NCBI GenBank assembly: GCA_043798995.1
Contig: JAZDOD010000008.1
Span: 25,327 to 89,326 of the forward strand
Length of the DNA stretch: 64,000 nt
Origin: a bacterium
GTDB lineage: Bacteria > Patescibacteriota > Patescibacteriia > JAACEG01 > JAGUWE01
Direction: 5' to 3'
In this document: positions 10,318 through 47,050 of the stretch, one piece after another
Numbering within the stretch: the first letter of the stretch is position 1
Layout of the letters: each line of letters opens with the position of its first letter
Notes under the pieces: generated by a model
Told to the model about the DNA's origin: nothing
What the model saw: the letters and a program-made list of their open reading frames with translations, nothing else
Database searches by the model: none
Position numbers and translations under genes: made by a program

Positions 10318-10424
10318 AAGGGTATTAAACCCTTTGATATCAGCGCCTGCCTGCGCAGGCAGGCTCGTTCGGAAATGAATCCGCCAGCTGGCGGATTCAT
10401 TTCTCTCGCTTGCTTGATAATAAA
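10318..10424 (+). repeat. Family-2 mosaic palindromic element, copy A (modules M1-M2-M3)
   Basis: aaaccctttgatatcagcGCCTGCCTGCGCAGGCAGGCtcg contains a perfect 20-bp palindrome. It is followed by aatgaatCCGCCagctGGCGGattcatt and ctcgcttgcttgataataaaa. Related copies lie at 17023 and 46862. Confidence 0.6.
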
Positions 10425-10456
10425 AAACAAGTTTTAAGCTTGTTTTTTATTTTGGT
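10425..10456. terminator. Bidirectional intrinsic terminator between convergent genes
   Basis: aaaacaag tttt aag cttgtttttt flanked by A/T runs on both strands. Confidence 0.45.
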
Positions 10457-10473
10457 TAAATATTGAATTTAAT

Positions 10474-11859
10474 TTATTGGATTTCAATTTGGTATAAATT
10501 AAAAAGCCCAGTTTCTTTTTTTAAAGTTAAATATAGTTTATCACCATTACTGTTTATAAATAAATCGTTAATTTTTCCTTTAACCGGATAATTAACAATG
10601 TTGATTTTGTCCCTAAGATCTAACTCAACAATTTTAATCTCTTCTTCGGAACTGAAAATAAGATGATTCCAATCCGGATACCAGATAATTCGACCGATGG
10701 GTTGACTGAATCTTGAAATAAGTTCTTTTTTATTTTCTTTTTGGTAATAAACAATAATTTCAAAGTCGTTATAATAGAGAAGTTTATCATTATCTTTTTC
10801 TTCTGCCCAACTGGCATCTTTGGCAGTAGCAGTTAAAATTTCCCCTAAATCATCATTGACCACTATTAATTTAGTTGCGGTTTTATCCAACAAGGTTAGT
10901 AAATTAGGCGAATCAATAAAACGATAGTTTTTGCCATCTAAGCCAAAAGAGTTGGTCAATTGCTGTTTTAATGCACTTCTATCGGCTTTGGCTAAATAAT
11001 TAGTTTCAGGAGTTGAAATTATGAGATAAAAATCATTGCCTTTGATTAAAAAATCATTGATTTTAAGATTGCTCGGTACTATTTCTAAAATACTTTTTTC
11101 GTTTCCGTTGCCCAAATCTAATTGAATAATTTTATTTTTTTGAACGTAATATAGAAAATTATTATTTTGTTTATCCAATTTGATATTTTGCCACAAAACA
11201 GCTGCCGGCAGAACAACTCTTTGCTGGCTGAAATTTTCTAAATTGTAAATGTAAAATTCTGGACTTGATCTTTTTTTGTCCAAGTGACGATCTATAGCAT
11301 AGAAGATTTTTTTATTATCAAAGGATGGGATAAAATCAACAAATTCAGCGGTAGTGGTAGCTAAAGTTGTTTCCTGAACATTTACTAAATTTAAAAGATT
11401 TAAACTGGAAAAATCATTTTCCCCCTTTACGGATAAGATTTTATCGTTATTTTTAGTCGATTTAATTAATTTTAGATTTTGAGAAAATTTTATCGGTAAA
11501 ATTTTATTTTTAAAAAGTTTTATATTCTGAGCAAAGGTGGTTAATTCAGGGTAAATGGCCAATGTTTTTTGCCAGTCAAAGTAATTGCTTTTACTAACTT
11601 TTATTTTATATTCGCCGGGCAAAAGCCGTGTTAAACGGACAAAATTATCAAAAATCGTGGTGCTTAATTTGAATTCATCGTTTAGGAAAACATTAGCTTC
11701 TTTCGGTTGATATGTTAAAATTAGAGCCCCTGTTTTTTCAAAAGTATTTTTTTTGAAATTAAATTGATAACCTTGGGTATGCAAAACAATCAAGTAGGTG
11801 AAAATAAAAAAACAAAGAACAAAAAATAAAAAAATTATTCTCCTGGTGCGAAGAGTCAT
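10474..11859 (-). CDS. Membrane-anchored secreted protein with a PEGA-like domain and beta-rich repeats
   Basis: N-terminal TM helix (IIFLFFVLCFFIFTYLIVL), a PGEYKIKVSKSNYFDWQKT PEGA-like motif and repeated NxxLYY-type beta strands. Confidence 0.5.
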   Translation of the reverse strand: MTLRTRRIIFLFFVLCFFIFTYLIVLHTQGYQFNFKKNTFEKTGALILTYQPKEANVFLNDEFKLSTTIFDNFVRLTRLLPGEYKIKVSKSNYFDWQKTLAIYPELTTFAQNIKLFKNKILPIKFSQNLKLIKSTKNNDKILSVKGENDFSSLNLLNLVNVQETTLATTTAEFVDFIPSFDNKKIFYAIDRHLDKKRSSPEFYIYNLENFSQQRVVLPAAVLWQNIKLDKQNNNFLYYVQKNKIIQLDLGNGNEKSILEIVPSNLKINDFLIKGNDFYLIISTPETNYLAKADRSALKQQLTNSFGLDGKNYRFIDSPNLLTLLDKTATKLIVVNDDLGEILTATAKDASWAEEKDNDKLLYYNDFEIIVYYQKENKKELISRFSQPIGRIIWYPDWNHLIFSSEEEIKIVELDLRDKINIVNYPVKGKINDLFINSNGDKLYLTLKKETGLFNLYQIEIQ

Positions 11860-11865
11860 AATTAT

Positions 11866-13119
11866 TTAGATGATTTTTATTTTGGCGCCGATTTGTTGAA
11901 GGCGTTCGGCAATATTTTCATAGCCTCTTTCAATTTGATAGACATTGTCAATGGTTGTCTGACCCTCGGCAATCAAGCCCGCCAGAATTAAAGTCATGCC
12001 GGCTCTCAGGTCGGGGCTGTCAACTTTTTTGCCATAAAGCTTGGTTGGGCCATTGACAATAACACGATGCGGATCGCACATAATAATATTCGCCCCCATC
12101 TGGTTAAGTTTATCAGTAAAAAAAAGGCGGCCTTCAAAAATAGGGTCATGAATTAAACTTGTACCTTGGGCTTGGGTCATAAGCAGTGTAAATGGCGCCT
12201 GAAGATCAGTGGGGAAGCCGGGGTATTCATGGGTGATGAGATCCGTGGCTTTAAATTTTTTCACCTGTTTGGTTAAAAGATAATCGTTGCCGATTTCAAA
12301 AACTCCGCCGACTTTTTTTATCATAGCTAAAAAAGTTTCTAAACGAGCTGGTTCGCAGTTATTTATCTTTAAGGAATTGCCGGTTAAAAGGCCCATAATA
12401 ACAAAAGTGCCGGTTTCAATTCGATCAGGCATAATAGTCAGATCTCGGCCATTAAGCTTTTCTACGCCCTCAATAATTATTGTCGGCGTACCAGCCCCAT
12501 TAATTTTAGCGCCGCAGTCATTGAGCCATTGGGCTAAGCTGGAAATTTCAGGCTCCATGGCGCAGTTTTTAAGAATAGTTTTGCCTGGCGTAAGAGTTGC
12601 CAACATTATTAAGGTCTCGGTGCCAGTCACGCTGACTCGAGTAAAAATAAAATTAGCGCCTCGTAATTTATTGGCTTTAATAACAAAAAAATTTTCTTCT
12701 TCAATAATTTCTGCTCCCAGGGCCTTAAAACCCGCCAAAAACATATCAATCGGTCTTTGGCCGATAGGGCAGCCGCCCGGTTTGGTAATTTTAACTTCCT
12801 TGAGACGAGCTAAAAGCGGGCCTGACAAAACTATAGAGGCTCTTAAGCTTTGAGCAAGTTTAGTGTCCAGTTGGGTTTTAGAAACTGATTTAGTGCAAAT
12901 TGAATATTTACCATCCTTTATTTTTTCAATTTTTGTCCCCGAATCTTTTAGAATTTCGATCATTCTTAAAACATCACCGATTTCCGGTACATTATCAATA
13001 GTTATTTCTTCATCTATCAAAATACAGCCGGCTAAGACCTTTAAAGCCAGGTTTTTTGCTCCTTTAACCTCAACTTCACCGCTAAGTTTATGGCCACCTT
13101 CAATCAAATATTGATTCAT
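11866..13119 (-). CDS. murA: UDP-N-acetylglucosamine 1-carboxyvinyltransferase
   Basis: Full-length similarity to MurA, with KNLALKVLAGC…, the catalytic Cys region KPGGCPIGQRPIDMF, and GFPTDLQAPF. Confidence 0.9.
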   Translation of the reverse strand: MNQYLIEGGHKLSGEVEVKGAKNLALKVLAGCILIDEEITIDNVPEIGDVLRMIEILKDSGTKIEKIKDGKYSICTKSVSKTQLDTKLAQSLRASIVLSGPLLARLKEVKITKPGGCPIGQRPIDMFLAGFKALGAEIIEEENFFVIKANKLRGANFIFTRVSVTGTETLIMLATLTPGKTILKNCAMEPEISSLAQWLNDCGAKINGAGTPTIIIEGVEKLNGRDLTIMPDRIETGTFVIMGLLTGNSLKINNCEPARLETFLAMIKKVGGVFEIGNDYLLTKQVKKFKATDLITHEYPGFPTDLQAPFTLLMTQAQGTSLIHDPIFEGRLFFTDKLNQMGANIIMCDPHRVIVNGPTKLYGKKVDSPDLRAGMTLILAGLIAEGQTTIDNVYQIERGYENIAERLQQIGAKIKII

Positions 13120-13248
13120 AAATTTTTAGTCTTCAAATTACTTATAGTTTAATTTATTAAACTTAAATTGTAAAGATGGCATTGTCAATTAATACTATCT
13201 GTGTTAAAATTAAAAAAATTGTGAATTTAAAATTTAATTTTTTAATTT

Positions 13249-14496
13249 ATGTTTTTATTTTTACAAAATCAAAATCAAAAACCGAAAAATAAAGGCGTTA
13301 AATTTTTAGCTTTCTTTTTGGTTATTATTTTAATTGTTAGCAGTTTTACTTTGGGAATTTTAGTTGGGCAAAGACAGATTTTTTTGGGCAGTAGTTTTAG
13401 AACAGTTAATAGCGGTCTTTTAAGCAGTAAAGCTAATGAAAAAATTGATTTTTCTCTTTTTTGGCAGGTTTGGAATTTTGTTAAAGATAATTATGTTAAC
13501 CAGCCGGTTGAGGATAAAAAATTATTTTATGGAGCGCTTTCCGGGATCGTGGCCTCGCTTGAAGATCAGCATTCAGTTTTTTTGGAACCTGAAACAGCCC
13601 AAAAATTCAGTCAGGAATTAAATAGTGATTTGGAAGGAATCGGCGCCGAAGTCGGTATTAAAAAAGACCTTTTAACAATTGTGGCACCATTGCCTGATTC
13701 GCCGGCCGAAAAAGCTGGGCTCCGGGCAGGCGACAAGATTTTAAAAATTGATGATTTGGAGACCCAAGGCCTGGATTTAGATTATGCTATTAATTTAATT
13801 AGAGGCAAAACCGGGACGCAAGTTCGTTTAACTATTGGCCGGGAGGGCTGGACCGAACCAAAAGAATTTACTATTACTAGAAAAAAAATCCATTTTAAAA
13901 CCGTTAAGTGGGAAAAGAAGGATAACAATATCATTTTATTGACCATTTCCAATTTTAATGAGGATACCGAAGCCGAGTTTAATTTAGCCGCCAAGGAAAT
14001 TTTAGCCCAATCACCGCGCGGTCTAATTTTGGATTTGCGCAACGATCCAGGCGGTTATTTGGATACGGCTGTTCATGTAGCTAGTTTTTGGGTGGAAAAA
14101 GGACAAGTAGTAGTTAAGGAAAAATTTAGCAATGGTCTTGTGACTGAGCATAAATCAAACGGTCCGGCTTATTTTAAAGATTATAAAACAATTGTTTTGG
14201 TTAATCAGGGCAGTGCTTCTGGTTCAGAAATATTAGCCGGCGCGCTTCAGGATTATGGCTTGGCGACTTTAGTTGGTAAAAAAACTTTTGGTAAGGGATC
14301 TGTTCAGACATTGGAGGAATTAAAAGATGGATCAGCCGTTAAATTAACCATTGCTAAGTGGCTTACGCCACGCGATCGTTCGATTGAAGAAGAAGGCGTT
14401 AAGCCGGATACGGAAATTGATTTAACCGAAGATGATTATAATAATGATAAGGACCCGCAATTGGACAAGGCGATTGAATTGATTAATAAAAAATAG
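13249..14496 (+). CDS. ctpA: Carboxyl-terminal processing protease (S41, PDZ-containing)
   Basis: N-terminal TM helix, a PDZ domain (GIGAEVGIKKD…AGLRAGDKILKID) and S41 motifs LILDLRNDPGGYLD and GSASGSEILAGAL. Confidence 0.85.
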   Translation: MFLFLQNQNQKPKNKGVKFLAFFLVIILIVSSFTLGILVGQRQIFLGSSFRTVNSGLLSSKANEKIDFSLFWQVWNFVKDNYVNQPVEDKKLFYGALSGIVASLEDQHSVFLEPETAQKFSQELNSDLEGIGAEVGIKKDLLTIVAPLPDSPAEKAGLRAGDKILKIDDLETQGLDLDYAINLIRGKTGTQVRLTIGREGWTEPKEFTITRKKIHFKTVKWEKKDNNIILLTISNFNEDTEAEFNLAAKEILAQSPRGLILDLRNDPGGYLDTAVHVASFWVEKGQVVVKEKFSNGLVTEHKSNGPAYFKDYKTIVLVNQGSASGSEILAGALQDYGLATLVGKKTFGKGSVQTLEELKDGSAVKLTIAKWLTPRDRSIEEEGVKPDTEIDLTEDDYNNDKDPQLDKAIELINKK

Positions 14497-14520
14497 TTTT
14501 AGTTTGTCAATTTTAAAATT

Positions 14521-14607
14521 AGCCAAGATTAGTTAATTTTCTTCTGCGGAACTCTCCGCCAGCCGGCGGATCAAACAGTCCTCGTGCGAAAATTAGCTAA
14601 TCTTGGC
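14521..14607 (+). repeat. Family-1 structured element, copy 3
   Basis: Outer stem agccaagattagttaatttt / aaaattagctaatcttggc, with G-U compensatory changes relative to copy 1. Same core, with inner hairpin tccgccagccggcgga. Confidence 0.6.
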
Positions 14608-14634
14608 CGTGATAGTTATAAAATAAATAGTTCT

Positions 14635-14907
14635 ATGAAAACCTTGCAAATCAAAGTTTATGGCCGGGTGCAGGGAGTATTTTTTCGTTCAAGTATCAAA
14701 GAAAAAGCTGAAAATTTTGGGATTAGTGGCTGGGTGAAAAATGAGCCGGACGGAACAGTTTTAATTGTTGCTCAGGGTCCTGAAAATAGCTTGAAAGAGT
14801 TGATTAAATGGTGTTATAATGGAATCGGAGGAGCTCGGGTCACTAAAATTGAAAGTGAGCCGATTGAGCCAAGAGAAAAATTTGAAAAATTTGAGATAAA
14901 ATTATGA
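14635..14907 (+). CDS. acyP: Acylphosphatase
   Basis: [11 protein letters not shown] and [11 protein letters not shown] are acylphosphatase signatures in a 90-aa protein. The track's upstream start at 14584 lies inside the repeat and is unlikely. Confidence 0.75.
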
Positions 14908-15350
14908 AGGTCGTTTTACTTAAAAAAGTGCCGGGGTTAGGGGAGAAGGGCGAAATCAAGGAGGTTTCCGATGGTTACGTCCGAAATTTTTTATTACCCA
15001 AGAAATTAGCCAAAATTGCTTCCTCTGATGCTCTGGATCAGCTTCAGCAAGAAAAAGAACAGCAAGCCAAAGCCGCCGAACTTGATTTGCTTAAAACCCA
15101 AAAAACAGCCGAAAAGTTGGAAAGTTTAGAATTGGAAATAAAAGTTAAAGTCAACGAAACCGGCAAGCTTTTTGGCGCCGTCAATAAAGCTTTAATTTTG
15201 GAAAAAATAAAAGCCAAAGGAATTAAAAATTTGACCGAATCGCAAATTATTTTAACAGAACCGATCAAAGAAGTTAGTGAGCGCGAAGTATTAATTAATT
15301 TACCCCACGGCTTGGAAGCTAAGGTGATGGTGAGAGTGATTGCAGAGTAA
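14904..15350 (+). CDS. rplI: 50S ribosomal protein L9
   Basis: [36 protein letters not shown] is the canonical L9 N-terminus. Confidence 0.85.
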
Positions 15351-15409
15351 ATTAAACAAAATTTAAATATAAAAAATAAAAATGATTTTAGAATTTTAAA
15401 TTTTAATTT

Positions 15410-17020
15410 ATGTCTCGTTATATTTTTGTCATTGGGGGTGTGATGTCGGGAGTAGGCAAGGGAATTGCCACTGCTTCTATTGGCAAAATTTTACAAAGCA
15501 AGGGCTTTAAGGTTACGGCCGTTAAAATTGATCCCTATATCAACGTTGACGCCGGCACTATGAACCCGATTGAGCACGGCGAAGTTTTTGTCACCGAAGA
15601 CGGCGATGAAACTGATCAGGATATCGGCAATTATGAACGATTTTTAAATACGGACATTTACCGCGATAACTATATGACCACCGGCCGGGTTTATTTGACT
15701 GTGATCCAGCGGGAGCGCAATTTGGAATATGAAGGCAAATGCGTTGAAGTGGTGCCGCACATTCCCGAAGAGGTGATGAACCGGCTCAAAAAAGTGGCCA
15801 GAAAATCACGGGCCGACTTTGTTATCATTGAAATTGGCGGCACGGTTGGCGAATATCAGAATATGCTTTTTTTGGAAGCAGCCAGAATGATGCATCTTAA
15901 AAATCCGCGCGATATAATGTTCGTGATGGTAAGTTATTTGCCCATTCCCTCAATGATCGGTGAAATGAAAACTAAACCTACGCAATACGCGGTAAGATCG
16001 CTTAATTCCGCCGGTATCCAGCCGGATTTTATTATTGCCCGTTCGCGGTTGCCGCTTGATGAACCGCGCAAAAGAAAAATTTCCACTTTCTGCAATGTGA
16101 CTGAAAATGATGTCATCAGCGCTCCGGATATTGAATCAATTTATGAAGTGCCGCTTAATTTTGAAAAAGAAAAATTAGGCAATAAAATTCTTAAAAAATT
16201 CGGTCTTAGTCCGTGCCGCAGAGATTTAAAAGATTGGCAAAAGATGATCAAGGCGGTCAAAACCGCTAAACGTGAAATCAAAGTCGGCATTGTCGGCAAA
16301 TATTTTGATACCGGCAACTTTACTTTAGCCGATTCTTATATTTCGGTTATTGAAGCGGTTAAACACGCCTGCGCGGTTAATCATTGCAAACCAAAATTTC
16401 ACTGGTTAAGCACCAAAATTTTAGAAAAAGAAGGAACGGATTGCCTTAAAGAAGTTGACGGCGTGATTGTGCCGCAAGGGTGGGGCAGTCGCGGATCCGA
16501 AGGCAAAATCAAAGCTATTCAGTATTGCCGGGAAAATAAAGTGCCGTATTTTGGCCTTTGTTACGGCATGCAGATGGCGGTTATTGAGTTTGCCAGAAAT
16601 GTCTGCGCCATGGAAAGGGCTAATTCAATGGAAGTTGATCCCCAGACGCCAAATCCGGTTATTCATATTATGCCCGATCAGCAAAAATATCTGGAACGCC
16701 GTCAGTACGGCGGCACCATTAGATTAGGCGCCTGGCCCTGCGCTCTGAAAAAGGGAACAAAAATTTTTCAGATTTACAAAAAGAAAGAAATTTCCGAGCG
16801 CCACCGCCACCGCTATGAATTTAATAATGATTACCGCGAAACAATGGAGCAAAAAGGGCTTACCATTGGCGGCACCTCGCCCGATGATAAATTAGTGGAA
16901 GCAGTTGAAATTACAAATCATCCTTTTTTCATCGGCACTCAATTTCATCCAGAATATAAATCGCGGCCATTGGCGCCTCATCCATTATTTGTCGCTTTTA
17001 TTAAGGCCTGTTTAAAATAA
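15410..17020 (+). CDS. pyrG: CTP synthase
   Basis: YIFVTGGVMSGVGKG N-terminus, a glutamine amidotransferase domain with GLCYGMQ and HRHRYEFN. Confidence 0.95.
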   Translation: MSRYIFVIGGVMSGVGKGIATASIGKILQSKGFKVTAVKIDPYINVDAGTMNPIEHGEVFVTEDGDETDQDIGNYERFLNTDIYRDNYMTTGRVYLTVIQRERNLEYEGKCVEVVPHIPEEVMNRLKKVARKSRADFVIIEIGGTVGEYQNMLFLEAARMMHLKNPRDIMFVMVSYLPIPSMIGEMKTKPTQYAVRSLNSAGIQPDFIIARSRLPLDEPRKRKISTFCNVTENDVISAPDIESIYEVPLNFEKEKLGNKILKKFGLSPCRRDLKDWQKMIKAVKTAKREIKVGIVGKYFDTGNFTLADSYISVIEAVKHACAVNHCKPKFHWLSTKILEKEGTDCLKEVDGVIVPQGWGSRGSEGKIKAIQYCRENKVPYFGLCYGMQMAVIEFARNVCAMERANSMEVDPQTPNPVIHIMPDQQKYLERRQYGGTIRLGAWPCALKKGTKIFQIYKKKEISERHRHRYEFNNDYRETMEQKGLTIGGTSPDDKLVEAVEITNHPFFIGTQFHPEYKSRPLAPHPLFVAFIKACLK

Positions 17021-17022
17021 AG

Positions 17023-17128
17023 GGTGTTAAACCCTTTGATATCAGCGCCTGCCTGCGCAGGCAGGCTCGCTCGCCCGCCTAAATTTTTTTCAAAAATTTT
17101 GGTGGGTCTCGCTCTCTTGATAATAAAA
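17023..17128 (+). repeat. Family-2 mosaic palindromic element, copy B (M1-M4-M3)
   Basis: Overlaps the pyrG stop. It contains the 20-bp palindrome GCCTGCCTGCGCAGGCAGGC and the module cgcccgcctaaattttttt…ggtgggtctcgctctcttgataataaaa. Confidence 0.6.
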
Positions 17129-17131
17129 CCT

Positions 17132-17686
17132 ATGGACAGCGTTAAAAAAAAATCTAATTTTGCCAACAAAATTGTTTTTTTGATTTTTTTTTTGTTGATT
17201 ATCATTTTAATTGTAATTCTGATTAATAAAAATTTTGGGGAAAAGTCATTAAAACCGGAAATAACCATTTTTAAGGCCGAGCCAATTAACAAGGCCATTA
17301 AAGTCAATCTTCAGGCAACTGACAAGTTAGGGCTTAAAGAAATGGTTTTGCAGTTAAAAGAAGAAAAAATAGTGACTGATTGTAACTTGCAAAAATTATG
17401 TAGCCGCGAATTAGTAATTGACAATCCGCCACAAATGCCAAGCGATTTAATAACCTTAGTCGCCACCGTTACCAACATTCAGGGAGAAAAAGTTTCCGAG
17501 CAAAAGGTGGTGGAAATAAAGAAAAATGAGGTTAAACCTTGCGAGCAGCCAACTGACTGCGGCGAAATAAAAGACTGCGGCGAAAGCTGGCTTTGTCTTG
17601 AGGGATTTTGTGAGCCAGAATTTAAAAATTGCACCAGCACGGAAAATACAATCCCTAGTCCAACCAGTACGCCAGAGTTATATTAA
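17132..17686 (+). CDS. Hypothetical membrane-anchored protein with a Cys-rich C-terminal module
   Basis: ATG at 17132 follows the repeat; the track's upstream start lies inside the repeat. N-terminal TM helix, and a C-terminus PTDCGEIKDCGESWLCLEGFCEPEFKNC. Confidence 0.45.
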   Translation: MDSVKKKSNFANKIVFLIFFLLIIILIVILINKNFGEKSLKPEITIFKAEPINKAIKVNLQATDKLGLKEMVLQLKEEKIVTDCNLQKLCSRELVIDNPPQMPSDLITLVATVTNIQGEKVSEQKVVEIKKNEVKPCEQPTDCGEIKDCGESWLCLEGFCEPEFKNCTSTENTIPSPTSTPELY

Positions 17687-17700
17687 AAATTTTCAAAATT

Positions 17701-18183
17701 ATGATTCTAAATATATTAAAATATCCCAGTAAAATTTTACTTAAGCCGAATCAAAAAGTAGAAGTAATTGATGAAAAAATTAAGAAACTTATTTCTGATA
17801 TGGCAGAGACGATGTATGCTGCCGAAGGACGTGGTTTAGCTGCGCCGCAGGTAGGGGTAAATCTGCAAATTATTGTAGTTGACTCCGGAGATAAATCACA
17901 GGCCTTTGTTAATCCAGAAATTATTAAAATTTCAAAAAAATCTGAAATAATGGAAGAGGGTTGTCTGAGCTTGCCTGGAATTGAGGTTAAAGTTAAACGC
18001 TCTTGGCAAATTGAAGTTAAAACTCTTAATATAGAAGGTAAAGAAATTAAATTCAAAGCCGAAGATCTTTTAGCGCGGATTATTCAACATGAAATTGACC
18101 ATCTCAACGGCAAATTAATTTTAGATAGAGCTAATTTTTTGATTCGCCGCAAGATAATTAAAAAGTTAACCAATAAAATATGA
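17701..18183 (+). CDS. def: Peptide deformylase
   Basis: GLAAPQVG, EGCLSLPG and QHEIDHLNG are the three PDF motifs. Confidence 0.9.
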   Translation: MILNILKYPSKILLKPNQKVEVIDEKIKKLISDMAETMYAAEGRGLAAPQVGVNLQIIVVDSGDKSQAFVNPEIIKISKKSEIMEEGCLSLPGIEVKVKRSWQIEVKTLNIEGKEIKFKAEDLLARIIQHEIDHLNGKLILDRANFLIRRKIIKKLTNKI

Positions 18184-18650
18184 AAGAAAAAGAATTAAAA
18201 ATTTTAATTCTTATCTTTGTTGGCATTTTAATTTTGGCCGCTATCTTTATTTTTTTTATACCCTATTTTCAGGTTAATATTAGTTTTAATCCTGAAAGAA
18301 AGCCAATACCAAAAATAGAAGCCCAGCTTGCCAGCTCCAAAAGTCTTTATCAAAATAATGAAAAAATAACATTGGCGGCCAAAATTAAATCAGATAACCC
18401 GGTTGAAAATTTAACTGTCCATATATATGGATTTAAAGATAAAAAAGATCGCTATCTTCTTGATCAAACTAGAAACGTCAATTTGCCAGCCGGTCAGGAT
18501 TATTCAATCCAATTTGTTTTTCGCCTGCCTAACTGTTTTTCTTGCGCCGGCTTAAGTTCGGGTCCTTATCAGATAAAATTAGAAGTAATAAAAAACAGTC
18601 GTGTGCTTGATGCCGCCACCGCGGAAATTAATTTAGTTTCAGTCCAATAA
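18180..18650 (+). CDS. Hypothetical membrane-anchored protein
   Basis: 156 aa with an N-terminal TM helix; overlaps the def stop by 4 nt. Confidence 0.5.
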   Translation: MKEKELKILILIFVGILILAAIFIFFIPYFQVNISFNPERKPIPKIEAQLASSKSLYQNNEKITLAAKIKSDNPVENLTVHIYGFKDKKDRYLLDQTRNVNLPAGQDYSIQFVFRLPNCFSCAGLSSGPYQIKLEVIKNSRVLDAATAEINLVSVQ

Positions 18651-18672
18651 TTTAAATTATTAATTTAGAATT

Positions 18673-19914
18673 ATGGAAAAATTTTCCAAAGAAAAGACCG
18701 AGATAAGAAAACCGCCGACTTATCTTTATTATTTAGCGGGGGTTATTTTATTATTTTTTTTAGGTTTTGGTGTTTATTATTTTGGCTACGATAAATATTT
18801 ACAAAAACAATTTCGCCAAGAAAACCAAAACCAAAATTTAAATTTAAGTAATGTGTCAGAAAAGCTTAATCAAAATCAAGCCGCCCCAACGCAGAAAATT
18901 TATATTGACTCGCCGCAAGAAAATGAAACCGTTGGCAATCCGATAGTGGTTAAAGGAAGAGCTCTTACCTTAGGAAAAGGAGGAAGATTGAATATCAGAA
19001 TTCGCGATGCTAATGGTAAAATTTTAGGTGAAACTGCTACTTTAGTGGAAGACGAAGCCAGAAGGTCAGATCCAACTAATTACCAAACTAATCTTTCTTA
19101 CGCCACCTCCACCACCGAATTTGGTTTAATTGAGGCCTTTGACTACTCGGCCAAAGACGGCGGAGTTCAAAATTTAGTTTCTGTCAAAATCAAATTCGCT
19201 AATTATGGCCAGACTAATAATATAAATTCAGAATGTTTATTACAACCTCATGTTCAGAAATATGAAGGGTTGGGATATAATAATGAAGCAAGTGTTAAGG
19301 AATACATCGTTCCATTTTTTAAATGTAATCAATCTTTACTCTTTGTAAGAAAAGATCAGGGTGAAAAAAACAATGAATGGGATGGAACGTTTAATGTTTA
19401 TTTTCGAGAAAATGATAAAGATAAAGATACTTATTTATTTGAGCATAAAGGATTATTAATGGATATTGCTGGTGGAGGAACGTGGGATATTTCTGATTAT
19501 ACAAAAGATATAATCAAAATTTCTCTAGGGTCAAGCGATATGGGGGCAAGTGCTTATTGGGATTATTACATTTCTATAAAAAATAAAGAATTGATATTAG
19601 GATTGTCGGGAGGAAGAGGTCTTAATGTGCTTACTAAATTAAATAATTATAACTTTTTATTAAATACCGATCCTGTTTGGTGCGATAAAGAATCAAAAGA
19701 AAGAACAACGACCGCCATATTTATAAATGAAAAAAAATATAATTTAGAAAACAAAATTATTGAAGATTGCCCTAAAGATTTGACAGATAATTTTTTTCCT
19801 CCACCAAAAATTAAATTAGTGTCATTTGATCTAAATAAAAAACAAATAGTTATTAACATTCCTGAAAATGAGAATAAAATATTTAATTATGAGACAGGAA
19901 TTTTAAATGATTGA
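18673..19914 (+). CDS. Hypothetical secreted/anchored protein
   Basis: 413 aa with an N-terminal TM helix, an N/Q-rich linker and a beta-rich domain. Confidence 0.5.
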   Translation: MEKFSKEKTEIRKPPTYLYYLAGVILLFFLGFGVYYFGYDKYLQKQFRQENQNQNLNLSNVSEKLNQNQAAPTQKIYIDSPQENETVGNPIVVKGRALTLGKGGRLNIRIRDANGKILGETATLVEDEARRSDPTNYQTNLSYATSTTEFGLIEAFDYSAKDGGVQNLVSVKIKFANYGQTNNINSECLLQPHVQKYEGLGYNNEASVKEYIVPFFKCNQSLLFVRKDQGEKNNEWDGTFNVYFRENDKDKDTYLFEHKGLLMDIAGGGTWDISDYTKDIIKISLGSSDMGASAYWDYYISIKNKELILGLSGGRGLNVLTKLNNYNFLLNTDPVWCDKESKERTTTAIFINEKKYNLENKIIEDCPKDLTDNFFPPPKIKLVSFDLNKKQIVINIPENENKIFNYETGILND

Positions 19915-20094: not shown

Positions 20095-20349
20095 TTGTAT
20101 GCTAAACCGCTTGCGAATAAGCTTATTTTGTGCTATGATCCCAATATGTACAACTGGTCAGTAGACGTCAAAAAATTGAAAAAAGACAAGAAAAAATATG
20201 CCATCTGGCGCTTGGAGCAGATGGTAAATTTTGGTTTGACTGGGGAAAAAATCAAAGCCGGAGAATTAAGGAAAAGCTGGCGCAAGTTGGAGCTGGATCC
20301 CCTTAAAAAGAAGTATTTAAAAATGCTTTTATGGCCAAGACGATCTTAA
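20095..20349 (+). CDS. Small basic protein; candidate cognate antitoxin of AbiEii
   Basis: 84-aa ORF starting at TTG (alternative ATG at 20146). It overlaps the downstream toxin gene by 19 nt and has an RBS-like AAAGG 7 nt upstream. Confidence 0.4.
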   Translation: MYAKPLANKLILCYDPNMYNWSVDVKKLKKDKKKYAIWRLEQMVNFGLTGEKIKAGELRKSWRKLELDPLKKKYLKMLLWPRRS

Positions 20350-20996
20350 GTCCGAATCAGAAAATAATTCTGGATGTTTTAAGCAGCGACGATAACCTCC
20401 GTCGTGATTTTTATCTTACCGGAGGTACGGCGCTATCCGAATATTATCTTCATCATCGCCTGTCGGAGGATCTGGATTTTTTTTCCGAGAAAGAGTTTGA
20501 TCCGCAAATAATTTCCGTATTTTTTAAAAAAAACAAATCCGCGATAGGCATCAGAAAAATTGCCTTTGAAAGCAGTTTCAACCGCAATCTTTTTTTTCTG
20601 CATTTGCCAAAAAGCGAGATTATTAAAACCGAATTTACTTATTTTCCCTTTCCACGAATCGAAAAGAAAAAAGGAGCAGACAAGCTGGCCATCGATGGTA
20701 TTTTGGATATTGCTGTTAATAAAATTTTCACCATCTATCAGAAACCGCGCTCAAGGGATTTTATTGACCTGTATTTTATTCTCAAAAAAACCGGCTGGAG
20801 AATCGAAGATATTGTGACAAAAGCCAAAATTAAATTTGACTGGCACATAGATTACCTGCAGCTGGGTAGCAAATTCTTGCTGGCAAAAGAAGTCGGCGAT
20901 CGTCCGCGGATGCTTGTGAAAATCAATGACAAAGTTTGGCAGAATTTTTTTGTCAAAGAAGCCAAAAACTTCAAGAGCAAGATATTGGTGAAATAA
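20331..20996 (+). CDS. AbiEii/AbiGii-family nucleotidyltransferase toxin (type IV TA / abortive infection)
   Basis: YLTGGTALSEYYLHHRLSEDLDFF matches the AbiEii GGTAL…HRxSxDLDF nucleotidyltransferase motif, in a 221-aa protein. Confidence 0.7.
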   Translation: MAKTILSPNQKIILDVLSSDDNLRRDFYLTGGTALSEYYLHHRLSEDLDFFSEKEFDPQIISVFFKKNKSAIGIRKIAFESSFNRNLFFLHLPKSEIIKTEFTYFPFPRIEKKKGADKLAIDGILDIAVNKIFTIYQKPRSRDFIDLYFILKKTGWRIEDIVTKAKIKFDWHIDYLQLGSKFLLAKEVGDRPRMLVKINDKVWQNFFVKEAKNFKSKILVK

Positions 20997-23401: not shown

Positions 23402-23863
23402 ATGTTTTTTATAAAACAACAGAAAAACAGTGGCTTTACTTTAATTGAGTTAATTATTGTCATTGCCTTGATTGGTATTTTGGCTATTTTAGCCATACCT
23501 TTTTATCAATCGCTTCAGCTTAAGGCGGATTTGAATCAGGTTGGGGAAAAACTGGCTTCGGATCTTCGCCGCCAGCAAACCTACACTATTTCCGGCAAGG
23601 GAGCGAGCGCCTGGGGTGTGAGTTTTAATGCCGATTCCTACACCTTGTTTAAAGGCGTTTCTTTTGTTTTACGCAATCCGACGGCTGATGAAGTGGTTAA
23701 TTTGCCAAAATCAGTTCGTTTGTCTTTTCCGGCAGCGGAATTAGTTTTTAGCGTTCCGACAGGCAATACTTCATCTCCGGGCCAATTGACTTTAACCAAT
23801 TTAGTCAATAATCAGACCTTAACCATTAATATTTTTTCTCAGGGCTTGGTGCAATTAAATTAA
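23402..23863 (+). CDS. Type IV pilin-like protein (prepilin-type N-terminal cleavage/methylation domain)
   Basis: NSGFTLIELIIVIALIGILAILAIPFY is a class III signal peptide, G|FTLIE. Confidence 0.7.
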   Translation: MFFIKQQKNSGFTLIELIIVIALIGILAILAIPFYQSLQLKADLNQVGEKLASDLRRQQTYTISGKGASAWGVSFNADSYTLFKGVSFVLRNPTADEVVNLPKSVRLSFPAAELVFSVPTGNTSSPGQLTLTNLVNNQTLTINIFSQGLVQLN

Positions 23864-23882
23864 ATAGTTTAGAAATATATTT

Positions 23883-26819: not shown

Positions 26820-26821
26820 TT

Positions 26822-27352
26822 ATGATGAAAAATACCAAATCCCAAAAAACAAAAGAATGGCGGGGAAGATCAAAAGGATTCACCTTAGTTGAATTGGTGA
26901 TTTATCTGGCCATTGTCAGTTTTGTTTTGTTGGTTGTCAGCGGATTTTTTTATAATATTCTGCTTGGCCGCAGCAAATTCAGCGCCCGCAGTGAAATTGC
27001 TTATAATGCTAATTTTGTTGAAAAAAAATTAGCTTTTTATATTCAGCAAGCCCAAAGCCTTCAAAGCGTCAGTCCCCAAACTTTGGTTTTAAATTTACCG
27101 CTAACGCAGACCATTACTTTTAATTTTAATGCCGCCAGACAGAAGCTAACCATGCAGGAAAGCAGCGGCCCCGTGGTTTATTTGAATACTGATAAGGTGG
27201 CGGTCAGCGGCAGTTTTTCTGATCTAAGTTATTTCCGGAGAAGCAGGAATATTTTAGTTGATTTAAAAATTTTAACCAAAAGCTCCAACCCCGCGCCATT
27301 TTGGCAAAATGAAACTGATTTTAAATTAAGTTTTGAATTAAGAAGCAAATAA
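26822..27352 (+). CDS. Minor pilin / pseudopilin-like protein
   Basis: SKGFTLVELVIYLAIVSFVLLVVSG is a prepilin motif. Confidence 0.65.
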   Translation: MMKNTKSQKTKEWRGRSKGFTLVELVIYLAIVSFVLLVVSGFFYNILLGRSKFSARSEIAYNANFVEKKLAFYIQQAQSLQSVSPQTLVLNLPLTQTITFNFNAARQKLTMQESSGPVVYLNTDKVAVSGSFSDLSYFRRSRNILVDLKILTKSSNPAPFWQNETDFKLSFELRSK

Positions 27353-27355
27353 AAT

Positions 27356-27739
27356 ATGAAAATAAAGTTTAAAAAAGATAGTCAGGGTTATATTTTAATT
27401 TTGACAGTTTTAGTTATCTCGGCTGCCTCGCTGATAATTGCTTTAGGGTTAAGCAAATTACTGATTGACCAAATAGTTTTAGAGGCCGAACAGTCGAGCA
27501 GTTTTAAAGCTTTGGCGTCGGCGGAAACCTGCAATGAAGATGGTTTGGAAAAATTAAGAAACATTTGGCAGAATTATAATTATTCATTGTCAATTGATGG
27601 CAATTCTTGTACAATAAATATAAATGCCACTGGTTTGCAGGCCCAACTCACCTCAACAGGTACCAGCGGCGGTTATACTAAAAAAACAAACATTACGATT
27701 GATAGGGCGATGAATGTTGTTTTTTGGCAGCAGATGTGA
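27356..27739 (+). CDS. PilX-like minor pilin
   Basis: N-terminal hydrophobic helix QGYILILTVLVISAASLIIALGL lacking E5, as in PilX-type proteins. Confidence 0.5.
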   Translation: MKIKFKKDSQGYILILTVLVISAASLIIALGLSKLLIDQIVLEAEQSSSFKALASAETCNEDGLEKLRNIWQNYNYSLSIDGNSCTININATGLQAQLTSTGTSGGYTKKTNITIDRAMNVVFWQQM

Positions 27740-27754
27740 TTAATAAAATTATTT

Positions 27755-38266: not shown

Positions 38267-38687
38267 ACTCAGGTAAGTGGATGATCGCTCTCGTTTTTAA
38301 AAAGCGAGAGAGGAAAGTCCGAACACTCTCCGCTTTAGCGGAGAAGTAGGCAGTGGATAACGCCCACCGGAAGCAAGTTTAAGTTAAGAATGACTCTTAA
38401 GAGTTTTTGACTTAATCCCAAGTCCAGGGAAAGTACCACAGAAACTAAACCGCCCGCCTAAATTTTTTAAAATTTAGGCGGGTAAGGGTGAAAAGTGAAG
38501 GAGTAAAACCCTTCTCTCAGCGTGGTGACGCGCTTGAGTGGCAAACCCTGCCTGGTGCAAGAGCAAGTTTTCCCGCCGATGAGGCGGGGAAGGTAGCTCG
38601 CTTGAGTCCGACGGCAACGTCGGACCTAGATAGATGATCATCCCGCCGATGAGGCGGAACAGAATTCGGCTTATAGCTTGCCTGAGT
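38267..38687 (+). ncRNA. rnpB: RNase P RNA, bacterial type A
   Basis: P1 pairs actcaggtaag with cttgcctgagt. P4 5' strand GAGGAAAGUCCG. Also …UAACGCC…, ACAGAAAC…AACCGCC, GGUAAGGGUGAAAAGUG…GUAAAACCC, CUAGAUAGAUGAUCAUCC, and P4 3' strand ACAGAAUUCGGCUUAUAG. All match the type A consensus. Confidence 0.8.
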
Positions 38688-38736
38688 AACAATAAAACAT
38701 TGGTTAAAAACCAATGTTTTATTGTTTTTGACTTAA
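38688..38736 (+). terminator. Rho-independent terminator of rnpB
   Basis: aacaataaaacattggtt aaaa accaatgttttattgtt followed by tttga. Confidence 0.6.
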
Positions 38737-38762
38737 GGCAATAAATTTATTATAATTATATT

Positions 38763-40181: not shown

Positions 40182-40184
40182 ATT

Positions 40185-41228: not shown

Positions 41229-41234
41229 TTTTTT

Positions 41235-42716
41235 ATGGATTTTAAAGGTAAAAAAATAATCGTCATGGGTCTTGGTATTCTTGGTGGCGGAGTGGCAGTG
41301 GTAAAATGGCTGGCTAAAAAAGGAGCCGAGCTAACCGTGACTGATTTGAAAAATAAAAAAGAACTAAAAAATTCAATCACCAAATTAAAAGATTTAAAAA
41401 TTAAATATGTTTTAGGCCGGCATCGCGAAGACGATTTTAAAAAAGCTGATTTGATTATTCAAAATCCGGCCGTGCCGGCCGATTCAGAATATTTAAAAAT
41501 AGCGCGGGAGTCAGCCGTGCCGATTGAAAATGAAGCCAGTTTATTTTTTAAAATCGTGCCTCAGGACTTAATTATCGGCATTACCGGCACCCGCGGCAAA
41601 TCAACCACCACCACTTTAATTTATCAGATTTTTAAAAAAAAATACCAGTCGGCTTTATGTGGTGGCAATATCAAAGTCAATCCACTCTTTGAAATTATTG
41701 AGCAAGTGAAAAAAGATCCGGTTGTTTTGGAACTCTCTTCGTTTCAGTTAGAGAATTTAGCCGATAGCAAAATCAGTCCGCATTTATCAATTATTACTAA
41801 TATTTTACCCGATCATTTGAATCGTTATAAAAATTTGAAAAATTATATTAACGCCAAAGCTAATATTTTTAATTTTCAAAGCAAAGAAGATTTTGTTGTT
41901 TTAAATTTAGATAACCCTTTAACTAAAAAATTAGGCCAAGACGTTCCCTCGCGGCGTTATTGGTTTTCTGAAAAATATTTTTCCCAGCAAAATGGCGTTT
42001 TCTTGTCTTCGGGCCGGCTAATTTTTAGGCAAAACGGCCAAGAAATCAAAGTTTTAAATGTCAAAGAAATAAAACTGCCCGGCAGTCACAATCTGGAAAA
42101 TATTTTAGCCGCGGTTGCGGCCGCGATGATTTATCAAATACCGGTAAAGCTGATAAGAAAAGCTGTTTCAGAATTTAAAGGTGTGCCCGGCCGACTGGAA
42201 TTAATAAAAGTCATCAAAGGCATTAAATTTTATAATGATACAACCGCCACTATCCCGGAGGCGACAATTGCCGCCCTCGTTACACTCGGGCAGCTCAAAG
42301 ATGAAAATCTCCGCCGAAGGCGGATCTCCGCCAAAGGCGGATGGGCCTCTGGCGCACTCCTCGGGCGGAAAAAATCAAAAGTTAGGAATAAAAATATTGT
42401 TTTGATAGCCGGAGGAGCTGATAAAAAGTTAGATTTTCATTTTTTAGCGCCACAGATTAAAAAATATTGTAAAACCGTGATTTTATTGCCGGGCACGGCG
42501 ACGCCGAAGATTTATAAAGAATTACGAATTACGAATTACGAATTACGAATTATTAATGTTAAAAATATGATCGAAGCCGTTGCCGTTGCTTTTAAATTAG
42601 CGGTAAGCAGTGATATTATTCTTCTCTCACCGGCCGCGGCCAGTTTCGGCTTGTTTAAAAATGAATTTGACAGGGGAGAGCAATATTTAAAGGCAGTTAA
42701 GAAATTAAAATCCTAA
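41235..42716 (+). CDS. murD: UDP-N-acetylmuramoylalanine--D-glutamate ligase carrying in-frame repeat insertions
   Basis: KIIVMGLGILGGGVAVVKWL is the Rossmann fold and GITGTRGKSTTTTLI the P-loop. The C-terminus is LLSPAAASFGLFKNEFDRGEQY. Insertions: two tandem CCGCC-N4-GGCGG hairpins (42313-42352) and a 7-nt (gaattac) x5 repeat (42519-42553). Confidence 0.85.
   Translation: MDFKGKKIIVMGLGILGGGVAVVKWLAKKGAELTVTDLKNKKELKNSITKLKDLKIKYVLGRHREDDFKKADLIIQNPAVPADSEYLKIARESAVPIENEASLFFKIVPQDLIIGITGTRGKSTTTTLIYQIFKKKYQSALCGGNIKVNPLFEIIEQVKKDPVVLELSSFQLENLADSKISPHLSIITNILPDHLNRYKNLKNYINAKANIFNFQSKEDFVVLNLDNPLTKKLGQDVPSRRYWFSEKYFSQQNGVFLSSGRLIFRQNGQEIKVLNVKEIKLPGSHNLENILAAVAAAMIYQIPVKLIRKAVSEFKGVPGRLELIKVIKGIKFYNDTTATIPEATIAALVTLGQLKDENLRRRRISAKGGWASGALLGRKKSKVRNKNIVLIAGGADKKLDFHFLAPQIKKYCKTVILLPGTATPKIYKELRITNYELRIINVKNMIEAVAVAFKLAVSSDIILLSPAAASFGLFKNEFDRGEQYLKAVKKLKS
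42519..42553 (+). repeat. Heptanucleotide tandem repeat (gaattac) x5 inside murD
   Basis: gaattacgaattacgaattacgaattacgaattat encodes ELRITNYELRII in frame. Confidence 0.6.
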
Positions 42717-42729
42717 ATCCTAAGCACTA

Positions 42730-43986: not shown

Positions 43987-44058
43987 TCGCCAATATTTGT
44001 TATTCAATTTAAAATTGGTTATAATAATAAATAAAGATTTGAGATATTTAGTTAAATT

Positions 44059-44979: not shown

Positions 44980-45039
44980 AACATAGATAATAAATTAATA
45001 TATAGCTATTTGACAATTAATTAAAGGAGGGAAACTAAA

Positions 45040-46833
45040 ATGGAAAAGAAAAAAGTAGTTTTGATTGAACCAGCTTCACCCGGAGCCCATATTTTTTCGC
45101 GAGTGCCTATTCCACGCTTGGGTATTATTATTTTGGGCACAATAGCTAAGCAAGCAGGTTATGAAGTCAAAATTTATATTGAGGATATGTTTGGCAAGAT
45201 CAATGATTTAAAATCTGTAATTGAAGGTGCTCTCGCGGTAGGCATTTCGACAATTACTTCAACAGCACCAAGAGCTTATCAATTGGCAGATCAAACAAGG
45301 GCTTTAGGAATTACGGTAATTCTGGGCGGCGTTCATCCGACTTTTATGATTGAGGAAGCGCTAAACCACGCTGATTTTGTTGTCCGAGGAGAGGGAGAAA
45401 AGGCGATTTTGCCTTTACTTGAAGCCATAAGCGGCCAAATTAATTTTTCTCAAGTTCCTAATTTAAGTTATTGGCAAGGCGGCCAGATTATGAGTAATGA
45501 AATGGCACCTCACATTGTTGATTTAGATGAGATACCTAGTCCGGATTACTCGGTTATTGAGGGTTGGCAAACGGATAAAAAAGTTCCGGTTGTTTCCATT
45601 ACAACCTCAAGAGGATGTCCTTTTAATTGTGTTTTTTGTTCGGTTGTGCCGATGTTTGGCAGACGTTATCGTTTTACTTCTGTGGAGCGAGCCGTGGCCG
45701 ATCTTGAGGCAGCCGCGAAAATTGCTAAACACATTTTTATTGCCGATGATAATTTTACAGCCAACATCGAAAGAGTTAAAGCTATCCTAAAGGAAGCTAT
45801 TAGAAGAGGATTGAAGTTTGAATGGTCGGCTCAAGTTCGCACGGAAACGGCTAAAGACAAGGAACTGCTGCGACTGATGAAACAAACAGGCTGCTTCATG
45901 AATTTTATTGGTTTTGAATCAATTAATCCCAAAACACTAGTTGCTTATGAAAAAAAACAAACTTTGGCCGAGATTGAACAATCAATTAAAGCTTTCCAAC
46001 GTTTTGGCATCAAAATTCACGGCATGTTTGTTTTAGGAGCTGATGAAGATGAGGTAGCCACGATTAAAGAAACCGTCCGTTTTGCTAAAAGACTTGATAT
46101 TGACACAGTCCAGTTTATGATCCTTACCCCTTTACCCGGCACCAGAGTTTGGCAAGAGTTTGTTGACCAGGCAAGAATTATTGATATTAACTATAGTCAT
46201 TATGATGCCCATCATACTGTTTACAAGCCCAAACGCATGACTAGCTACGAATTGCAGATAGAAACCTTCAGAGCAATGAAAAAATTTTATAGTTGGCGGG
46301 GAATTTTCCAAAGATTGCTCAAGGCGATTATCACCTGGTCGGCGCCAGATTTCTGGATAGTCAATCTGCGTTTTTACGGCCGCAAACAAATTAGACAGGC
46401 CTTTGAAAGCAAACGTCTCTATCTAAAATATTTGCATGAAAAGATATCGCAACATACAGAAAAATTCAAGGCAAATTTGTCTAAGAAAAGAATCAAAACT
46501 GTGGGTTTGCCCGCGGAACTTATGGGCAATTGGGAACCTTCTTATCGGCGGTTTTTGCGAGCTTTTTTAGCTAAGTTAGGAGTTAAAATCATTGATTTGA
46601 AAGCTGATCAAATAATTGACGAACAACCTGACATTGTTTTGTTAGCTCATTGGGCAGTCAAAAATAAGGGTGAGATTTTTCACTCAATCAAGGATAAAAA
46701 ACAAATTAGCTTGGATTTTAATCCTCAAAATTTTAGCGAGCAATGTCTTGGTTTAGGCCTGCTTTTTAAAAGCAAAGTCAGGCGAGTCCGTCGGATTTTT
46801 CAAAAAACCCTGCAAGACAATGTTCTTGCCTAA
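45040..46833 (+). CDS. B12-binding domain radical SAM protein (class B)
   Basis: N-terminal cobalamin-binding Rossmann region (VVLIEPASP…ILGGVHPTFM…DFVVRGEGE). Radical SAM motif SRGCPFNCVFCSV (CxxxCxxC). Strong RBS aaaggaggg. Confidence 0.8.
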   Translation: MEKKKVVLIEPASPGAHIFSRVPIPRLGIIILGTIAKQAGYEVKIYIEDMFGKINDLKSVIEGALAVGISTITSTAPRAYQLADQTRALGITVILGGVHPTFMIEEALNHADFVVRGEGEKAILPLLEAISGQINFSQVPNLSYWQGGQIMSNEMAPHIVDLDEIPSPDYSVIEGWQTDKKVPVVSITTSRGCPFNCVFCSVVPMFGRRYRFTSVERAVADLEAAAKIAKHIFIADDNFTANIERVKAILKEAIRRGLKFEWSAQVRTETAKDKELLRLMKQTGCFMNFIGFESINPKTLVAYEKKQTLAEIEQSIKAFQRFGIKIHGMFVLGADEDEVATIKETVRFAKRLDIDTVQFMILTPLPGTRVWQEFVDQARIIDINYSHYDAHHTVYKPKRMTSYELQIETFRAMKKFYSWRGIFQRLLKAIITWSAPDFWIVNLRFYGRKQIRQAFESKRLYLKYLHEKISQHTEKFKANLSKKRIKTVGLPAELMGNWEPSYRRFLRAFLAKLGVKIIDLKADQIIDEQPDIVLLAHWAVKNKGEIFHSIKDKKQISLDFNPQNFSEQCLGLGLLFKSKVRRVRRIFQKTLQDNVLA

Positions 46834-46861
46834 ATAGTTAACTAGTAGCCAATCCAGTTAG

Positions 46862-47050
46862 TGATTCCGCCGAGTGGCGGATTACTACATGGTAAACGCT
46901 ACTAGTTTTTTTATTATCAAGCGAGCGAGACCCACCAAAGTTTTTGAAAAAAATTTAGGCGGGCGAGCGAGCCTGCCTGCGCAGGCAGGCGCTGATATCA
47001 AAGGGTTTTATTATCAAGCAAGCAAGAGTTATGAATCCGCCAACACATGA
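46862..47050 (-). repeat. Family-2 mosaic palindromic element, composite copy C (reverse orientation, nested modules)
   Basis: gtgattCCGCCgagtGGCGGattact (M2), then the reverse complement of copy B (ttattatcaagcgagcgagacccacc…aaaaaaatttaggcgggcgagcgagCCTGCCTGCGCAGGCAGGCgctgatatcaaagggttt), then a second rcM3 (ttattatcaagcaagcaag) and partial M2 (atgaatccgcc). Confidence 0.6.

Follow-up and report, generated by a model that had tools for sequence, protein, structure and literature searches.

Rickettsia palindromic elements (RPEs) are short palindromic repeats that carry no transposase of their own and reside, in a small genome, in intergenic DNA and, frequently, in-frame within unrelated housekeeping genes (PMC10969869). 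The GC clusters of yeast mitochondria show 'merger and shuffling' of palindromes and use a short fixed target (PMC4478555), and the pneumococcal BOX, RUP and SPRITE repeats cluster and insert into one another (PMC10969869). The repetitive extragenic palindrome (REP), the unit of the bacterial interspersed mosaic elements (BIMEs), is defined as an imperfect palindrome of 20–40 nt, one end of which bears an unpaired tag, GTAG or CGTC (PMC3733652). Patescibacteria (candidate phyla radiation) possess very small, streamlined genomes, and a literature search combining these names with palindromic-repeat and MITE (miniature inverted-repeat transposable element) terms returned nothing resembling a description of small palindromic mobile repeats, judged by titles and abstracts. 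Here, we analyse a family of palindromic repeats in a 64-kb stretch of a patescibacterial contig (JAZDOD010000008.1; G+C about 37%). This whole stretch is called the window, and all positions without another contig name refer to it. The next relatives of its pyrG, after the identical entry, are Patescibacteria. An initial annotation of the window had described three copies of a BIME-like mosaic at gene 3' ends that share an 18-mer with rnpB, the gene for RNase P RNA. We consider the family to be, probably, a new mobile palindromic element that is non-autonomous and specific to one lineage, a genus of Patescibacteria.

Judged by behaviour only, and not by sequence, the element resembles RPEs, as it sits in-frame with 87 nt in pilC, pilM-like and M23 peptidase genes and creates a new MurA C-terminus. 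It differs from RPEs in its phylum, its length (38–106 nt versus about 150), its nested optional hairpins and its fixed AATAAA boundary, and the copies in the window are all intergenic. With the yeast mitochondrial GC clusters (e.g., GC42) and fungal double-hairpin elements it has in common GC-rich hairpins multiplying in an AT-rich, compact genome with a short fixed target dinucleotide or duplication, whereas the GC clusters belong to an organelle instead of a bacterium and target AG instead of AATAAA. To our knowledge, no link between these GC clusters and RNase P RNA has been reported. BOX repeats share the modular build, and the clustering of the pneumococcal repeats may be compared with the pile-up at 46840–47042 of the window. 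However, BOX modules are linear (A-Bn-C) while the element places hairpin within hairpin, and there is no sequence relation.

Empty and filled insertion sites

We found relatives carrying the element by using its six-frame translation as a protein query and by looking up the members of the pyrG cluster. The protein query matched two proteins, a PilC and an M23 peptidase, in which the element peptide is present at 78–82% identity. The contigs L011, L012 and L013 come from JGI (Joint Genome Institute) 3300037880 and 3300038440; L018 came from the pyrG look-up, and the same sequence is present in NCBI GCA_020062525.1. L011 is syntenic with the pilus cluster of the window at 73–93% nucleotide identity, and L018 is syntenic with 11565–19212 at about 80% identity. 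Five further copies lie in 27 kb of one congeneric metagenome species: L011 763–861 and 8005–8102, L013 2888–3009 (L013a) and 4238–4310 (L013b), and L018 308–358. Eight copies are thus known from the 64-kb window and 27 kb of the relative. The proviso of the initial annotation that the three window copies might be the only ones, with no modular reuse elsewhere, is thereby answered.

Two orthologous pairs display the element in one species and its absence in the other. At the 3' end of murA (11870–11883, minus strand), the window is empty and reads AAAATAAA/AATCATC, and L018 is filled exactly at this junction with a 38-nt sequence, the core of the element. The longer alignment of GGCGCCAAAATAAA/AATCATC in the window with GGCGCTAAAATAAA, the insert GGGTACTTAAACCTTTAATATCAGCGCTTGATAATAAA and AATCATT in L018 reveals a clean insertion, which alters the MurA C-terminus from KIKII-stop to KIKGT-stop. 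The second empty site is located in the pilM-like gene (28811–28830, plus strand), where the window reads GAAGAGAAAACAAA/AATTTT; in L011, an in-frame insert of 87 nt separates AAAATAAA from ACCC. Identity between the pilM-like orthologues is 62%, and the 29 extra residues of L011, IKGIKPFDISARSEMNPPAGGFISLARLI, are missing from the window. All eight copies have AATAAA on both sides, and the empty sites contain a single AA(T/C)AAA. The inserts measure 38 (counted by hand), 78, 87, 87, 87, 96, 105 and 106 nt. Small, multi-copy, non-coding sequences of 38–106 nt that are present or absent at two orthologous pairs conform to what is expected of MITEs, and at the level of sequence they are evidence for mobility.

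Three of the five copies in the relative, each of 87 nt or 29 codons, are within coding sequence and in-frame. The genes concerned are pilC, where the copy is antisense, the pilM-like gene and the gene for the M23 peptidase. A fourth copy, in L018, provides the stop codon of murA. RPEs behave likewise: they have repeatedly entered unrelated protein genes in-frame and left them undisrupted. Because the copies occur in both orientations and in coding as well as non-coding DNA, including the interior of three genes of the relative, the proposed tie to gene 3' ends has to be given up. Relative and window copies are 97–100% identical, compared with 68–89% for the flanking genes; the two L011 copies show 100% identity over 98 nt, and L013a shows 99%. 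The sequences of L011 and L018 were assembled again from a second sample (L012 and L020), and an assembly artefact is therefore unlikely.

L018 also contains an element of a third family (5640–5775, about 135 nt) with 16-nt terminal inverted repeats, AGGACTTACGCGTTTG and CAAACGTGTAAGTCCT. It resides behind pyrG after the same AAAATAAA, the place where the window carries copy B (see below). Its internal TCCCCC..GGGGGA hairpins resemble a hairpin cluster of the window at 54768–54890, between the L10 leader and rplJ. The gene following copy B, encoding a hypothetical membrane protein of 184 residues (17132–17686), lies between pyrG and def in the genus, also in L018, and is absent in more distant relatives.

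Anatomy of the copies and nesting of hairpins

The window contains one repeat family at three intergenic loci: A (10314–10425), B (17016–17128) and C (46909–47042, minus strand). In sense orientation, which is the plus strand for A and B, a unit consists of AATAAA, hairpin 1 (AAAGGGTRTTAAACCCTTT), GATATCAGC, M1, TCGYTCG, hairpin 3 and TCTCGCTNNCTTGATAATAAA(A). All modules quoted in the initial annotation are present, and their counts exceed the expectation from shuffled sequences: M1 (GCCTGCCTGCGCAGGCAGGC) occurs three times (0.00 expected), M3 four times at two mismatches or fewer (0.00 expected) and the 5' block AAACCCTTTGATATCAGC three times (0.11 expected). Hairpin 3 exists in two versions that are unrelated to each other, type A with the core TCCGCC..GGCGGA and type B, CCCGCCTAAATTTTTTTCAAAAATTTTGGTGGG. 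In the repeat search, A and B were 95% identical over 64 nt.

In copy A (plus strand), the left AATAAA (10314–10319) precedes an insert of 105 nt (10320–10424). Hairpin 1, AAAGGGTATTAAACCCTTT, occupies 10317–10335 and is followed by the linker GATATCAGC (10336–10344), the 20-nt palindrome of M1 or hairpin 2 (10345–10364), TCGTTCG, a type A hairpin 3 that is a perfect palindrome of 32 nt (GAAATGAATCCGCCAGCTGGCGGATTCATTTC, 10372–10403), and M3 (TCTCGCTTGCTTGATAATAAAA, 10404–10425). The previously named module M2 is the centre of this longer palindrome. An RmlA-like nucleotidyl transferase gene (stop at 10300) is located upstream, and a convergent minus-strand gene downstream (both by Pfam).

Copy B (plus strand) has its left AATAAA at 17016–17021 and its insert at 17022–17127, with hairpin 1 at 17019–17037, M1 at 17047–17066, the type B hairpin 3 (CCCGCCTAAATTTTTTTCAAAAATTTTGGTGGG) at 17074–17106 and M3 at 17107–17128. 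It separates pyrG from the gene for the 184-residue membrane protein, the ATG of which (17132) follows 3 nt downstream. The overlap with the pyrG stop, noted before, is real in that the stop (17018–17020) falls within 17016–17128, but it lies in the flanking AATAAA and outside the element body.

Copy C lies antisense to both of its neighbours, the gene of a B12-binding radical-SAM protein and uvrB (by Pfam), and represents a tandem of a truncated and a full unit adjoining each other via a terminal AATAAA. C2 (46909–47008, minus strand) is a full type B unit that lacks the 5' half of hairpin 1, and its reverse complement is 98% identical to B (17029–17128) over 100 nt. C1 (47006–47042, minus strand) is a truncated type A unit with the 3' half of hairpin 3A and M3. 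The left portion (46862–46883) of copy C as described earlier belongs to a separate palindromic element of 68 nt at 46840–46907, in which a TCCGCC hairpin is enclosed by a perfect inverted repeat of 10 nt, AACTAGTAGC/GCTACTAGTT. As this element directly adjoins copy C, the spacer is a pile-up of three elements.

The copies of the relative reveal how the larger units arose. The 38-nt core reads GGGTA(C)TTAAACC(C)TTT(G/A)ATATCAGCG/CTTGATAATAAA; it is positioned directly 3' of AAAATAAA, ends in AATAAA and folds into hairpin 1 and a second hairpin, TATCAGCG/CGCTTGATA. The core exists by itself in L018, where M1 and hairpin 3 are missing and the sequence reads ATATCAGCG/CTTGATAAT; the tip of this short hairpin is the exact position of both inserts in the larger copies. 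All copies of the relative lack M1 and read GATATCAGCG/CTCGCTCG, i.e., GATATCAGCGCTCGCTCG, which identifies M1 as an 18-nt palindrome, CCTGCCTGCGCAGGCAGG, inserted after CAGCG. The hairpin 3 cassette, either of type A (32-nt palindrome) or type B, is bordered by a direct repeat of CTCGCTCG. M1 also occurs free of the core: a second relative with 86% nucleotide identity, L014, has a CCGCC..GGCGG hairpin inserted in-frame in murD, with two M1 inside it. This murD site, between TLGQLK and IVLIAGGADK, is empty in L015 and occupied by different TCCGCC hairpins in the window. The site accounts for about 28 extra residues in the window (42308–42375), about 21 in L014 (4280–4345) and none in L015.

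The idea of a mosaic of reusable palindromic modules is thus well founded, given that M1 and hairpin 3 are optional or exchangeable in the relatives. The 'shuffled modules' are best read, from the sequences compared, as successive nested insertions at hairpin tips plus recombinants.

Short hairpins are found elsewhere in the window, too. The mini-hairpin TCCGCC-N3-4-GGCGGA occurs seven times (0.01 expected), at 10380, 14555, 42310, 42327, 46866, 53377 and 61794; it forms the core of hairpin 3A and also occurs within a second repeat family, upstream of tRNA-Tyr and, in-frame, inside murD and uvrC. At the N-terminus of uvrC (53360–53393), the GC hairpins GCCAAAGGCGAATCCGCCTCTGGCGGA in the GIY-YIG region encode FAKGESASGGKDKRGE and are probably another in-frame hairpin insert. 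The C-terminal region of murD has a tandem heptamer, GAATTAC x4 (42520–42550), which encodes RITNYELRII and is absent from MurD of L014 and L015.

Hairpin 3 type B and helix P12 of RNase P RNA

The window encodes a class A RNase P RNA at 38269–38689 (Rfam RF00010, 218.8 bits with cmscan). The cmscan alignment assigns the hairpin to the long helix that follows the conserved ACAGAAA block, and we read this helix as P12. This putative P12, CCCGCCTAAATTTTTTAAAATTTAGGCGGG (38453–38482, plus strand), resembles hairpin 3 type B. The 18-mer reported earlier to be common to module M4 and an rnpB hairpin is indeed identical in hairpin 3B and P12, although it is positioned at 38451–38468, not at 38450–38467. 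Copies B and C and rnpB are the sole places in the window with the 16-mer CCCGCCTAAATTTTTT, for which 100 shuffled sequences gave an expectation of 0.00. We aligned rnpB of the window with those of three relatives (L014, L015 and L016). P12 of L014 is similar, CCCGCCAAAATTTTCAAAAATTTTGGCGGG, with a compensatory change from U-A to A-U, whereas L015 and L016 have a short P12, CCCATTTAAAATGGG. Hairpin 3B shares a different 16-mer, TTTTCAAAAATTTTGG, which covers the C of the loop and the 3' arm, with P12 of L014, and the L013b copy has a perfect GGCGGG arm. With the conserved flanks included, 33 of 42 aligned columns of hairpin 3B match P12 of the window or L014; with the short P12 of L015, the matches number 20 of 42. 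The concern that the rnpB match might be confined to the A/T run is dispelled, because the CCCGCC/GGCGGG clamp, the loop and both arms match and the second 16-mer is found in P12 of a relative.

We take the similarity of hairpin 3 type B and P12, which is observed, as evidence of shared ancestry. Alternatively, generic hairpins consisting of a GC clamp plus an A/T run, with arms of the TAAATTTT type, could have converged in an AT-rich genome. CCGCC/CCCGCC stems are indeed common in the window, the TCCGCC mini-hairpin is in excess (seven versus 0.01 expected), the clamp CGCCCGCC is also the P12 consensus of Rfam, and the remainder of the 18-mer consists of A and T only. Convergence nevertheless appears improbable, as the identical A/T string of 10 nt would arise by chance about once in 1000 given the clamp, the 16-mer is found nowhere else in the window, and the second 16-mer extends over the C of the loop and the 3' arm of P12 in L014. 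Under shared ancestry, a transfer from P12 to the element would be slightly more likely than an insertion into P12, since the clamp CGCCCGCC agrees with the P12 consensus of bacteria in general (Rfam).

In 1997, Vioque reportedly described short tandemly repeated repetitive (STRR) sequences within the dispensable P12 helix of cyanobacterial rnpB. That case is alike in placing genomic repeat sequence in P12, but it involves tandem heptamers instead of a single hairpin of a dispersed element. The RNase P RNAs compared here measure 421 nt in the window (38269–38689), 475 nt in L014 (45–519) and 574 nt in L015 (3196–3769). The rnpB genes of L014 and L015 possess other lineage-specific insertions of 72–130 nt near the 5' end and in a 3' hairpin, no repeats of which were found within the sequences compared. 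In this group, rnpB is generally plastic.

Alternative origins and the mode of spread

A functional RNA element, such as a 3'-untranslated region (3'-UTR) stabiliser, terminator or small RNA, could have been duplicated behind several genes. A and B directly follow plus-strand genes in sense orientation, conservation between species is high, and the predicted structures are very stable (z −5.7 to −8). Over all units, folding was better than that of shuffled sequences, with z from −3.9 to −8.3. However, the two strands were about equal, as for copy A with −52.6 kcal/mol (z = −8.0) and −51.3 kcal/mol for the opposite strand. Copy B folds better on the sense strand (−43.7 kcal/mol, against −39.2 kcal/mol antisense) due to a G-U pair in hairpin 3B, and this asymmetry is turned round in L013b (−24.1 kcal/mol sense versus −30.2 kcal/mol antisense). 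Because both strands fold equally and neither is favoured consistently, the predictions argue for palindromes acting at the DNA level over a dedicated RNA element. In addition, C is antisense to both neighbours, and copies of the relative reside in-frame in three genes, for the M23 peptidase, for the pilM-like protein and, antisense, for PilC. Rfam gave no family match for the element even at E up to 10, the best scores being far below the gathering threshold, and there is no covariation to count because the copies are near-identical. A terminator role, raised previously as something to check, is not borne out: the terminator scan detected no sense-strand terminator in the copies, and its sole match was to hairpin 1 of copy A in the antisense direction. 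We therefore regard an RNA element as quite unlikely. Readings as a hammerhead, an integron attC site, a promoter or a CRISPR were dropped, since the motifs do not fit, and an Rfam CRISPR-DR28 match (E = 0.09) was attributed to the palindromes only.

A second repeat family forms long hairpins of about 90 nt with an outer stem of 20 bp and a variable GC-rich apical hairpin (window 2086–2174, 8554–8642 and 14523–14611; L011 2471–2560). It is always in sense orientation, from overlapping the first possible start of an open reading frame (ORF) to about 130 nt upstream of it (DUF5701, rmlD, acylphosphatase and a pilus gene). Its four copies show compensatory double changes at 8 of 30 predicted pairs, it has no Rfam match, and the L011 copy is missing at the orthologous window spot (23863–23883). 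We regard this family as a candidate for a structured RNA or, alternatively, as a MITE with covariation.

Least probable of all is a true REP/BIME system mobilised by a REP-associated tyrosine transposase (RAYT) as in E. coli: the element shares with E. coli BIMEs a mosaic of palindromic units and short linkers, with some copies downstream of genes, and REPs inside genes are known from other species (PMC3733652), but it has intragenic copies and a defined 38-nt, non-REP core with a fixed AATAAA boundary and direct repeat. The flanks of M1, hairpins 3A and 3B and the TCCGCC hairpins, read by eye, are ATCAGC, TCG(Y)TCG, CTCGCTCG and TCTCGC, with no GTAG or CGTC next to any hairpin. Instead of alternating inverted copies of one REP with conserved linkers, there are three different hairpins in fixed order. 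The copies are also not strictly extragenic, as three of the five in the relative lie in coding sequence and one gives the murA stop. Neither a RAYT nor another Y1 transposase was seen among the scanned ORFs of the window. 'BIME-like' may thus describe an appearance, but it does not hold as membership.

In the mobile palindromic element that we prefer, the core lands directly 3' of AAAATAAA, and the AATAAA repeat would represent a target that is either duplicated (6 bp) or fixed. Larger copies arose by nesting palindromes, the hairpin 3 cassette and M1, at the tip of the second hairpin. We propose that copies spread in trans by an enzyme not seen among the scanned ORFs of the window. An enzyme recognising hairpins or single-strand DNA would fit best, as the element has subterminal hairpins, no terminal inverted repeats and a short target that is fixed. 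Palindrome-associated elements derived from IS200/IS605 likewise have no terminal inverted repeats, carry subterminal hairpins and insert beside a fixed short sequence. They offer a mechanistic lead by analogy only, given that the direct repeat stands at both ends here and no tnpA was seen among the scanned window ORFs. Persistence inside genes is partly explained by insert lengths that are mostly multiples of three and by three of six reading frames being open in copy A.

Several points weigh against this interpretation. No transposase, RAYT or other candidate enzyme was seen among the scanned window ORFs of at least 90 residues, which covered all apparent genes except the pilus genes at 23402–29371. 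Unlike those of MITEs, the ends, AATAAA/GGGTATTAAACCC... and ...CTTGATAATAAA, have no terminal inverted repeats, and the hairpins are internal only. The invariant AATAAA at both ends would fit a target duplication or element sequence alike, and the strong conservation between species could also reflect a host function. Only eight copies were seen, with one genome sampled over 64 kb, and ascertainment is biased in that two of the five loci in the relative were found through containing the element. Where the hairpin is rich in A and T, its sequence is of low complexity, and the exchange between P12 and hairpin 3B could have run in either direction.

No copies were found in the more distant relatives L002 and L017 (77% pyrG identity), where pyrG adjoins def. 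Pattern scans of GTDB genomes and JGI metagenomes with CCCTTTGATATCAGC-N-TCG(Y/N)TCG, looser on the metagenomes, gave chance matches inside coding sequence only, but this pattern required M1, which the copies of the relative lack. Searches of viral contigs, phages and plasmids found no element matches, and the element translation compared with 1.84 billion representative proteins (profile-free) yielded no more than repeat proteins without relation to it and a single translated CRISPR-like array, which we judged to be chance.

If the interpretation is correct, the family would represent a bacterial counterpart of the RPEs and of the GC clusters in mitochondria, with spread at AATAAA sites, self-nesting, additions of about 29 residues to housekeeping proteins and a helix in common with RNase P RNA. 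A bolder version, which we consider doubtful, is that small GC-rich palindromes propagate at hairpin tips and beside AATAAA by a mechanism unlike known terminal inverted repeat or RAYT systems, exchanged a hairpin with P12 and are remodelling a catalytic RNA as well as MurD, UvrC, PilC and MurA. Among close relatives, rnpB differs by insertions that reach about 115 nt. If so, selfish hairpins would be actively reshaping catalytic RNA and housekeeping proteins in a minimal genome. The element would offer a system for studying movement without terminal inverted repeats, and such repeats would explain odd gene-call extensions and protein insertions in metagenome-assembled genomes of this kind; they could also serve as strain markers. 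Elsewhere in the window, we observed an AbiEii-type toxin gene (20331–20996) and a translin-family gene (55947–56519).

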